Assembly: GCA_028707005.1 (NCBI GenBank)
Contig: JAQTVB010000002.1
Coordinates: 121 to 64,120 of the forward strand
DNA from: Patescibacteria group bacterium
GTDB taxonomy: Bacteria > Patescibacteriota > Patescibacteriia > Patescibacteriales > GWC2-42-12
Length of the DNA: 64,000 bases
Direction of reading: 5' to 3'
The notes under the pieces were generated by a model. That model had not been told where the DNA came from, ran no database searches, and worked only from the letters and a program-made list of their open reading frames with translations. Positions 62,207 through 62,811 of the stretch are shown here, piece by piece. The first letter of the stretch is position 1; every line of letters starts with the position of its first letter. A program made the translations under genes and the position numbers.

Positions 62207-62408
62207 AAGTTATTGTTAATGGTTAAAAATTTTTTGTAAATTTCGCCACAACGTTTACGAGTATCCGAAATTTTATTTACTCTACCTTATTATTGTTGAT
62301 AATTAAAGAATAAATAAAATTTGCGCGGAGCAGATGAGGCTGAATTTATAATTTTTACCTTAGATTAGCTGTTTTTTAATTTTTTGATTTGCCGGTGGAT
62401 AATTTAGC

Positions 62409-62436
62409 TTGACATTGGCTATGAATATGCTATATT
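62409..62436 (+). promoter_or_regulatory. near-consensus promoter (TTGACA-16-TGcTATATT)
   Basis: TTGACA at 62409-62414, extended -10 TGCTATATT at 62428-62436. Same architecture as the promoter at 57902. Confidence 0.5.
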
Positions 62437-62442
62437 GATTAC

Positions 62443-62520
62443 AGAGTATCAATCCGTGGAACCTCACCAAAGGTGGACCTCTGAAAACATCTTCTTCTCG
62501 CGAAGAGGGTGTTTTTGTTT
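62443..62520 (+). ncRNA. candidate ~75-nt small RNA whose 5' end is antisense to the anticodon arm of the adjacent tRNA-like gene
   Basis: Predicted start about 7 nt after the -10 element. 62444-62459 (GAGUAUCAAUCCGUGG) can pair with 62581-62596 (15 Watson-Crick pairs plus 1 G-U). Terminator: 10-bp stem 62488-62497/62502-62511 followed by a T-run. Confidence 0.4.
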
Positions 62521-62556
62521 GGCTTTTTTCATGCTATTATTAATTTGCGGCGGATC

Positions 62557-62641
62557 GGAGAGTAAAGCGCCTCGGAGGCGCCATGGATTGATACTCCGTT
62601 GGTTCGCTTTTGCGAATGAGGTTCGACTCCTCTGCTCTCCG
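62557..62641 (+). tRNA. non-canonical tRNA-like gene: 8-bp acceptor, 4-bp T stem, long variable arm, anticodon GAU, discriminator G (allo-tRNA-like)
   Basis: Manual fold. Acceptor 62557-62564/62633-62640. D arm 62567-62581. Anticodon stem 62583-62587/62595-62599 with loop UUGAUAC. Variable arm hairpin 62602-62617. T arm GAGG-UUCGACU-CCUC at 62618-62632. Confidence 0.55.
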
Positions 62642-62653
62642 CCGCGCTAAAAG

Positions 62654-62677
62654 CCATCTCACTTTGAGGTGGTTTTT
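62654..62677 (+). terminator. rho-independent terminator after the tRNA-like gene
   Basis: CCATCTC/GAGGTGG stem followed by T5. Confidence 0.6.
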
Positions 62678-62811
62678 AGTTGCTCGCAAATCAAAAATTA
62701 AAAAACAATAAAGCAAAAAAACTATAAATTCAGCCTTATCTGCGCAGTCGGATACTCGTTGTTATGCGCCGTAATAAAAAGCCAATTCATTAAAATGATT
62801 TTGGCAATTTA

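Follow-up and report, generated by a model that had tools for sequence, protein, structure and literature searches.

A nested palindrome in a Patescibacteria cassette array: a candidate oversized attC-like site enclosing a predicted sRNA and an allo-tRNA-like gene

We studied a 527-bp nested palindrome located at positions 62244-62770 of a 64,000-nucleotide stretch of DNA, hereafter the window, from a Patescibacteria group bacterium (assembly GCA_028707005.1, contig JAQTVB010000002.1, positions 121 to 64,120 of the forward strand). As a sequence-only reading of this DNA had stated, the palindrome encloses a small RNA (sRNA)/tRNA module; the sRNA is a predicted one, and the tRNA resembles the allo-tRNAs. 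It lies in an integron-type cassette array that runs from ~54.9 kb to the end of the window. A total of 75 loci were fetched, and those referred to individually carry the labels L001, L006, L009, L013, L014, L023, L037, L040, L069, L070 and L076. The features of the palindrome, in order along the plus strand, are the following:

62246-62252: left R box, CCACAAC, the R' box if the plus strand is the folding bottom strand, with the same YAAC-GTWT-L layout as six other co-oriented sites between 54.9 and 63.5 kb
62253-62256: unpaired spacer GTTT (4 nt), opposite a single T at 62760
62257-62268: left arm of the L box, ACGAGTATCCGA, complementary at 12 of 12 positions to 62748-62759 and identical in L023 and L006
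62268-62322: side hairpin 1, with a 16-bp stem and a 23-nt loop, also predicted in the fold of the single-stranded DNA (ssDNA)
62323-62356: left arm of stem 2, GCGCGGAGCAGATGAGGCTGAATTTATAATTTTT, which starts with a GCGGAG motif common to several array sites
62346-62684, plus strand: two-RNA module, whose edges are the start and stop of homology with copies that lack the arms
62370-62392: left arm of block 3, T-rich, upstream of the sRNA promoter, intrinsic to the module and conserved in six of six aligned copies
62409-62436, plus strand: sRNA promoter, TTGACA, a 16-nt spacer and TG-n-TATATT (11 of 12 consensus matches plus an extended -10)
62441-62465, plus strand: sRNA seed, an antisense match to the tRNA anticodon stem-loop
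62442-62516, plus strand: predicted sRNA of ~75 nt with a 5' seed, a small middle hairpin and an intrinsic terminator; the start is putative
62533-62541, plus strand: extended -10 of the tRNA gene, TGCTATTAT (TGnTATnAT at a fixed distance upstream of GCGGCGG in seven loci)
62557-62641, plus strand: 8/4 allo-tRNA-like gene, with anticodon GAT at 62590-62592 and discriminator G62641
62654-62677, plus strand: terminator hairpin after the tRNA gene, CCATCTCA/TGAGGTGG followed by T5, with compensatory changes in the alignment
62686-62707: right arm of block 3, an inverted copy of the left end of the module
62717-62745: right arm of stem 2, conserved in L023 and L006
62748-62759: right arm of the L box, TCGGATACTCGT, pairing with the left L box
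62761-62767: right R box, GTTATGC, prolonged into a 23-nt inverted repeat whose other half lies at 63383-63405, where the adjacent cassette has its far end

Reading inward, the palindrome is composed of four pairs of complementary blocks:

62257-62268 / 62748-62759: pair 1, complementary at 12 of 12 positions, with AAC (62250-62252) and GTT (62761-62763) on its flanks
62330-62356 / 62717-62743: pair 2, 27 nt, 93% complementary
62373-62392 / 62686-62705: pair 3, 20 nt, 90% complementary, and a perfect 15-nt core at 62370-62384 / 62693-62707
62441-62465 / 62575-62599: pair 4, 25 nt, 84% complementary

All four had been listed in the sequence-only reading and were found at or near the positions given there, except that the fourth pair had been drawn too wide. 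Self-reverse-complement local alignment gave a best score of 67, against 25.3 +/- 5.3 (maximum 58) in 300 dinucleotide shuffles, and the block matches are thus significant against a shuffled background. The minimum free energy of the palindrome as ssDNA was -108.7 kcal/mol versus -56.6 +/- 4.6 kcal/mol for shuffled sequences (z = -11.4), and none of 100 shuffles equalled it. By both measures the 527-bp nested palindrome is real and significant. A contig from a separate assembly (Logan, L001) was 100% identical to the window over 62296-63475, and alignment with homologous modules showed that the complete palindromic structure recurs in two other Patescibacteria metagenome-assembled genomes (MAGs), with 87% (L023) and 83% (L006) identity.

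The palindrome is also composite, as had been proposed: at least seven other loci have its inner module but no outer arms, from which we conclude that arms and cargo are of separate origin. The ten module loci were the window, L023 and L006, with arms, and L014, L037, L040, L009, L069, L013 and L070, without them; six copies entered the multiple alignment. The module is therefore present in at least ten Patescibacteria-type sequences belonging to several Patescibacteria classes. BLAST matches to the window spanned 62351-62684 in L014, 62345-62681 in L037, 62342-62700 in L040 and 62401-62682 in L009. These four arm-less copies were ~80% identical to the module and lay before tig (L014) and clpP (L040) in Parcubacteria, before recA in Falkowbacteria (L037) and just downstream of recA in Saccharibacteria (L009). 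A related arm-less copy occupied a housekeeping region in a metagenome contig (L069). In L013, where the arm-less module lies between ligA and gatC, and in the likewise arm-less L070, the sRNA is downstream of the tRNA. A distant BLAST search of the module against phages and plasmids gave no match, nor did viral contigs match the T-arm/acceptor pattern or the seed...anticodon pattern. An open reading frame (ORF) of 71 aa across the module (62435-62650) was considered and discarded, as the homologues differ there by indels of 1-2 nt. In L014, a 37-bp direct repeat (2117-2153 and 2488-2524, 92% identical) flanks the module and duplicates the first 35 nt of tig, amounting to a long target duplication; the left end of the module would have to provide the tig promoter in that locus.

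Pair 3 joins module and arms. The conserved left end of the module is T-rich and contains TTAGC, and its inverted copy on the right side is complete in the window and in L023, partly deleted in L006 and absent from that place in L014, L037, L040 and L009. Pair 3 is the one real trace of layering in this region, and it lengthens the DNA hairpin by extending stem 2 into the cargo. The right arm would have arisen either by extension of the palindrome or by selection for foldability.

The first gene of the module, that of the sRNA, has a promoter whose TTGACA and TGCTATAYT elements are kept in eight loci, and an intrinsic terminator at 62482-62517. The predicted transcript measures 61-77 nt among the copies (75 nt in the window), and its 5' end was predicted to be unpaired in most of the eight homologues folded. 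It matched no Rfam family. Since the indels among homologues are not multiples of three, the sRNA is probably non-coding.

The second gene was identified by ARAGORN as tRNA-Ile(GAU), and no good -35 was seen upstream of it. Its best match in Rfam was tRNA-Sec, with 44.1 bits, under the gathering score of 47; no family passed its gathering threshold, and the Rfam alignment adds a ninth acceptor pair by using a base of the leader. In the cloverleaf drawn from 10 homologues, the acceptor stem has 8 bp and the T stem 4 bp, the D stem has 6 bp and closes a loop of 3-4 nt, and the variable arm has 6 bp. In this model 94.8% of the cells are paired and 12 pairs have changed on both sides. None of 500 shuffles matched the observed values on four of five measures, and 16 of 500 did so on the remaining one, the count of further pair types. 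All six pairs of the D stem covary, while the acceptor and T stems are paired in 100% of the cells (n=10) but are nearly invariant, which makes covariation uninformative in them. The anticodon loop, YUGAUAN, is invariant and all ten copies have the anticodon GAU. Bona fide tRNA-Ser genes found in the same scan, a Microgenomates tRNA-Ser among them, share its first six acceptor pairs, its T arm and G73. The gene thus combines the traits of an allo-tRNA: an 8/4 acceptor branch, a tRNA-Sec-like D arm, a long variable arm, G73 and a non-serine anticodon. A73, an identity element for isoleucyl-tRNA synthetase (IleRS), is absent, G73 taking its place. Judging from these elements, the tRNA is probably charged by seryl-tRNA synthetase (SerRS).

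In seven loci the leader of the tRNA, GCGGCGGA(U/A)C (62547-62556), is complementary to the 3' end plus trailer, UCCGCCGC (62638-62645). This pairing would lengthen the acceptor helix in the primary transcript, and may be a signal for processing or for an alternative fold. An extended acceptor register of 16 bp (62547-62562 / 62630-62645) was rejected, for it would destroy the T arm; we read it as leader-trailer pairing in the precursor.

The innermost pair of the palindrome corresponds to the sRNA seed and the anticodon arm of the tRNA. Compensatory changes preserve their complementarity in all ten loci, including the two with the sRNA downstream of the tRNA; for example, AUU.GAUAC faces GUAUC.AAU in the window and GCCUGAUAA faces UAUCAGGC in L014. 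The duplex energies lie 3.1-7.2 standard deviations below those of shuffled flanks (z = -3.1 to -7.2), and cofolding predicted that the heterodimer gains 9-11 kcal/mol in stability over the monomers. The complementarity persists where there are no attC arms and whichever gene comes first, and so it is a matter of the function of the module and not of the DNA hairpin. The predicted seed:anticodon-arm duplex is of the kind expected of an RNA antitoxin, which base-pairs with its toxin RNA. On these sequence comparisons, the innermost pair is rather likely to be an RNA-RNA recognition element of the module, with or without an attC around it. The L box (GAGTATC) resembles the sRNA seed, a likeness that was dismissed as chance, since the two do not covary and the seed differs in L023 while the L box is the same.

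The outer arms have the layout of an integron attC site. The attC-like site spans 62246-62767, or 514 bp from AAC to GTT, and its terminal boxes, CCACAAC (62246-62252) and GTTATGC (62761-62767), fit the RYYYAAC...GTTRRRY pattern. Beside the R boxes are the L''/L' inverted repeat, a 12/12 stem, and an unpaired spacer, GTTT versus T; a similar asymmetry of 4 versus 1-2 nt is found at sites 54903, 55347, 58865, 61838 and 63403 (4-6 versus 3 nt at 63401). The boundaries of cassette homology in L076, the direction of the ORFs and the G that follows AAC (PMC2727003) indicate that the minus strand is the top strand and the plus strand the folding bottom strand, so that the crossover would take place between 62251 and 62252. 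The extra 55 nt of the left arm (62268-62322), previously taken for an insert, form a hairpin with 16-nt arms (62268-62283 / 62307-62322, 94% complementary). They correspond to an enlarged form of the side hairpin that every clean attC-like site of the array carries after its left L box, the equivalents at the other array sites being shorter. The left arm of stem 2 is conserved only in L023 and L006, and not in the arm-less copies of the module. We consider it reasonably probable, given this arrangement of boxes and stems, that the palindrome represents one attC-like site in which the side hairpin is enlarged, stem 2 is lengthened to ~30 bp and the cargo occupies the tip of that stem.

Between the window and L006, the giant site and its cargo share 83% identity and the adjoining core genes ~73%, which suggests strong constraint or recent exchange. 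A search for the arm motifs among the fetched loci, aimed at an "empty" giant site, recovered only the same three loaded copies. Two further attC-like sites bear a cargo of another kind. At 55344-55694 of the window, two halves enclose a 73-aa ORF (55421-55642, minus strand) bounded by perfect 24-bp stem-2 arms (55405-55428 / 55644-55667), and the DNA folds likewise; in L023 (1843-2370) a 101-aa ORF lies within perfect 26-bp arms. The window site (55344-55741) then shows a duplicated L'R' half-site, at 55676-55694 and 55723-55741.

The array to which the palindrome belongs contains seven co-oriented half-sites of the form YAAC-GTWT-(L box)-RAG-(hairpin), at 54903, 55347, 57834, 58865, 61838, 62250 and 63403; none was found in this context elsewhere in the window. 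As in integrons and in attC-site clusters without an integron integrase (CALIN), these sites delimit cassettes at distances below 4 kb, all seven on one strand within 8.6 kb. The clean sites (61836-61959 and 63401-63494) end in (L box)-T/TG-GTTRRRY, and the compact ones fold into an R/L stem with a three-way junction made up of the side hairpin, a GCGGAG-type motif and a second stem. The cassette ORFs are all on the minus strand and are unrelated to each other: they encode a tRNA-binding domain, a nitroreductase, two Fic proteins, a NUDIX protein and orphans, and one more that we read from its sequence as phosphoribosyltransferase-like. A homologue of the 75-aa cassette ORF was present in L076, where nucleotide homology with the window was confined to 61971-62256; it runs from just before one R box to the other, the minus strand reading G|TTGTGG, and this small-ORF cassette has ordinary cassette boundaries. 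Exact-protein look-ups of the 75-aa ORF and of the nicotinate phosphoribosyltransferase (NAPRTase) returned no match, and for the 143-aa cassette protein no homologues were found, the look-up giving only the identical contig of 1.2 kb. As far as the contig shows, the array is a CALIN in the terms of IntegronFinder. In L006 the array directly follows a homologous glycosyltransferase gene and its cassettes differ from those of the window; the array (54.9-64 kb in the window, 6200-7300 in L006) thus comes after the same gene in two genomes that are ~73% identical.

Considering both halves of the evidence, it seems to us fairly probable that the four nested pairs arise from three different causes, namely attC architecture, the inverted end of the module and RNA-RNA recognition. 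The interpretation that we favour, and hold on balance to be correct, is that of an oversized attC-like site in an integron-type array, with a mobile two-RNA module at the tip of its variable stem and a missense tRNA under antisense control. The plus strand would fold as the recombinogenic bottom strand and the site would be used by an integron-type integrase, the hairpin-rich cargo being tolerated in the variable terminal structure. Once serylated, the tRNA would insert serine at AUC and AUU codons. The sRNA, more strongly promoted, would mask the anticodon arm or mark it for duplex cleavage; the difference between the promoters (11 of 12 consensus matches plus TG for the sRNA, versus an extended -10 only for the tRNA) is at most suggestive of antitoxin excess. 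The pair is plausibly an RNA-only addiction or abortive-infection module that would travel with cassettes and stabilise them. Toxin-antitoxin cassettes do occur in chromosomal integrons. The full proposal is that a Ser-charged allo-tRNA(GAU) recodes Ile codons as Ser throughout the proteome, that a short-lived sRNA masks its anticodon stem-loop, and that the module lodged in the attC stem is mobilised with cassettes while stabilising them; we put it forward tentatively, as a possibility suggested by the parallels with those integron cassettes and with the RNA-RNA CreTA systems (PMC8501985).

Several observations weigh against this interpretation. Known attC sites measure 57-142 nt (PMC2727003), and the present site, with 514 bp, is 3.6 times the known maximum. 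In canonical attC sites, the R''-L'' arm of the L stem bears two or three extrahelical bases that determine strand choice (PMC2727003), whereas the L stem described here (62257-62268 / 62748-62759) is perfect and has none; the asymmetry of the site stems from the side hairpin and the 4-versus-1-nt spacer and not from L-stem bulges. The non-Watson-Crick oppositions in the arms (4 G.T versus 1 A.C) show a weak bias towards plus-strand folding, too weak for mismatch types to be used as a guide to the folding strand, and they were discarded as such. No integron integrase is visible on the 64,488-bp contig, which ends inside the array. Ten ORFs of 276-449 aa in the core region of the window, seven of them integrase-sized, encode housekeeping enzymes and no recombinase, and the genome-size class of Patescibacteria has been reported to be without complete integrons (PMC4889954). 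On the RNA side, the three central pairs of the anticodon stem covary but its ends are weak. In some copies the stem is weak, only 76% of its cells being paired, and the tRNA could act mainly as an RNA partner and not in translation. Charging by IleRS through the GAU anticodon is conceivable. Finally, the 37-bp direct repeat around the module in L014 is unexplained, with no known mechanism.

Other explanations concern the origin of the palindrome as DNA. Assemblers are known to produce palindromes by chimeric inverted joins, and the independent contig ends within a hairpin, at 62296. Nevertheless, the Logan assembly is 100% identical over the right 475 bp of the palindrome (from 62296), which include the cargo and the right arm, and the same architecture was recovered at 83-87% identity, with its own substitutions, in two MAGs of other studies. 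The palindrome is not an assembly artefact, the chance of such an origin being negligible. The whole 527 bp could instead be a foldback element or one akin to a miniature inverted-repeat transposable element, with the outer arms as terminal inverted repeats and a coincidental likeness to attC. Long terminal inverted repeats around a non-coding cargo, and a unit that stands beside different neighbours in three genomes, would agree with this idea; yet its ends share the AAC...GTT / L-box design with six co-oriented sites located between unrelated ORFs, there is no target-site duplication at the arms and a single copy in the window, the arms are missing from seven other loci with the tRNA-sRNA pair, and no transposase partner was seen. 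We judge a transposable element very unlikely. Less probable still is the layered history proposed in the sequence-only reading, according to which the module had at one time been contiguous with site 5 at G|TTAGCTG, the outer hairpin and the small-ORF cassette being later arrivals and the 55 nt an insert. The heptamer TTAGCTG is indeed present at both 61956-61962 and 62365-62371, and L006 has GTTAGCTG at the module position. However, eight copies in the window against 6.5 expected are what chance would give, and the second copy does not mark the start of the module: it sits ~15-20 nt inside its conserved part, where TTAGC is invariant in six of six copies whatever their context, including those with no attC nearby. 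At site 5 the heptamer falls in the R'' box, the non-recombining end, and, with the minus strand as the top strand, the crossover is at the opposite end (the L076 homology breaks at the R' box). The 55 nt are the side hairpin common to all the sites. That reading had also missed the resemblance of the outer boxes to attC R/L boxes and the probable RNA-RNA interaction in the innermost pair.

The alternatives on the function of the cargo are somewhat stronger. The inner inverted repeat might work at the DNA level, as a hairpin for module mobility or attC folding, and not in RNA-RNA pairing: it zips into a long hairpin in the ssDNA fold, and the module is evidently mobile with no known mechanism. 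Against this, the repeat is retained in seven arm-less loci and in both gene orders; one of its arms begins in every case at the predicted +1 of a strong promoter that is conserved, and the other coincides each time with the anticodon stem-loop of a cloverleaf that covaries; and G.U pairs are tolerated on the transcribed strand. A DNA-level role appears improbable to us. We are less dismissive, though still doubtful, of a benign tRNA, either an extra tRNA-Ile that IleRS would charge by way of GAU or a tRNA-like regulatory RNA with no part in translation, whose level would be tuned by the sRNA with no toxicity involved. AUU and AUC are abundant codons in AT-rich genomes, and an extra tRNA-Ile could be useful where they abound. 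The UGAUA of the anticodon loop is invariant, the arm-less modules lie in housekeeping intergenic regions, and Mukai et al. suspected that many allo-tRNAs are not used in translation (PMC5389517). But serine-type traits are seen in G73, in the acceptor stem and in the long variable arm, and the A73 for IleRS is absent, a dedicated antisense RNA with a strong promoter would be an odd means to tune a harmless tRNA, and horizontal spread with ~80% nucleotide identity across Patescibacteria classes resembles that of a selfish element.

The site that we propose, an oversized attC-like site with RNA cargo, can be compared with several known systems. It resembles integron attC sites with a branched variable terminal structure, such as the Vibrio cholerae repeats, and CALIN arrays in its RYYYAAC/GTTRRRY boxes, L-box inverted repeat, unpaired spacer and branched stem, in the co-oriented sites placed less than 4 kb apart between unrelated small ORFs, in the break of homology at G|TT and in the G after AAC on the presumed bottom strand. 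It differs from known attC sites in its length (514 bp versus 57-142 nt), in the two promoter-driven RNA genes inside it, in the lack of extrahelical L-stem bases and in the R-box pairing that reaches 23-50 nt into the cassettes. Unlike known integrons, the array is hosted by a small-genome Patescibacterium, of a class reported without complete integrons, and no IntI was seen on the contig. In group IIC-attC introns and IS1111-attC elements, foreign DNA likewise resides inside attC with the ends of the site preserved; here the cargo has neither reverse transcriptase nor transposase and is only ~340 bp long. In contrast to attC-inserting elements, it is placed at the tip of the stem and not at the R'/L' junction, and the hairpin gains length from an inverted copy of the cargo's own end.

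The tRNA shares with the allo-tRNAs (PMC5389517) the 8/4 acceptor/T branch, the Sec-like 6-bp D stem with a tiny loop, the long V arm, G73, a non-serine anticodon, a sub-threshold match to tRNA-Sec and a mobile or addiction-type context. Allo-tRNAs are tRNA-Sec-like serine tRNAs of 8/4 or 9/3 structure known from Clostridia, Proteobacteria and Acidobacteria (Mukai et al. 2017, PMC5389517); their genes are found near toxin-antitoxin systems and transposons, the 8/4 forms are Ser-charged and active in E. coli, and two tested amber-suppressor variants derived from allo-tRNA(UAU) killed the cells. An antisense partner RNA is not mentioned in that study (PMC5389517). Unlike the published ones, the present tRNAs occur in Patescibacteria, always have the anticodon GAU and are always accompanied by a dedicated antisense sRNA. 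The pair recalls RNA-antitoxin systems (type I, and type VIII CreTA; PMC8501985) as a small self-contained two-gene unit in which an antisense RNA with the stronger promoter faces a stable structured RNA, translation and tRNA being the point of attack, and its residence in a cassette array recalls the toxin-antitoxin cassettes that stabilise chromosomal integrons. It departs from them in that the putative toxin would be a mis-decoding tRNA, with toxicity presumed, instead of an mRNA or a tRNA-sequestering RNA, and from CreTA in having no Cas or protein partner.

The literature searched yielded no description of an attC with genes within it, of an sRNA devoted to a tRNA anticodon arm, or of Patescibacteria allo-tRNAs. 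Should the 514-bp site recombine, it would follow that the hairpin of an attC site can hold genes, and attC detection tuned to 57-142 nt could miss giant sites of this kind; cassette arrays would also be active in the ultra-small genomes of Patescibacteria. As far as that literature and Rfam show, no dedicated sRNA covarying with the anticodon arm of a partner tRNA has been described; the pair is conserved in several Patescibacteria classes and in two gene orders. It offers a testable answer to what missense allo-tRNAs do and how cells tolerate them, and a candidate for a minimal two-RNA toxin-antitoxin system, while a natural antisense switch for a suppressor-type tRNA could serve controllable recoding. 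Should the addiction proposal hold, the mis-decoding tRNA would represent a new class of toxin and the site would be the first known recombination site to carry genes within itself.

Some additional features of the array were observed. At least four cassette ORFs are flanked by long inverted repeats that prolong the R-box pairing outward by 16-40 nt (up to ~50 nt where two blocks adjoin): 62761-62813 / 63346-63405, 54948-54976 / 55321-55349, 55747-55762 / 56298-56313 and 58421-58460 / 58827-58866. In canonical cassettes, R-box pairing covers 9-11 nt. Given these outward repeats, the attC stem of a cassette in circular or single-stranded form would be longer towards the ORF as well. At 57834-57990, an attC-like left half with its side hairpin is followed by a near-consensus plus-strand promoter (TTGACA-17-TATAAT, ~57904-57932) that reads antisense into the ORF at 57994-58413. 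The right half of this site is degenerate, and its upstream ATTAGCT and its ACAGA start are similar to their counterparts in the sRNA module. In L076 (300-720), many TGA triplets occur in seemingly coding sequence and may mean an alternative genetic code. A perfect 17-bp hairpin at 59032-59082, GTTTTGGGCTTCGGGAA / TTCCCGAAGCCCAAAAC, has GTT at its start and AAC at its end, opposite to the order in attC, and a related imperfect copy is present in L023 at ~3098-3150.

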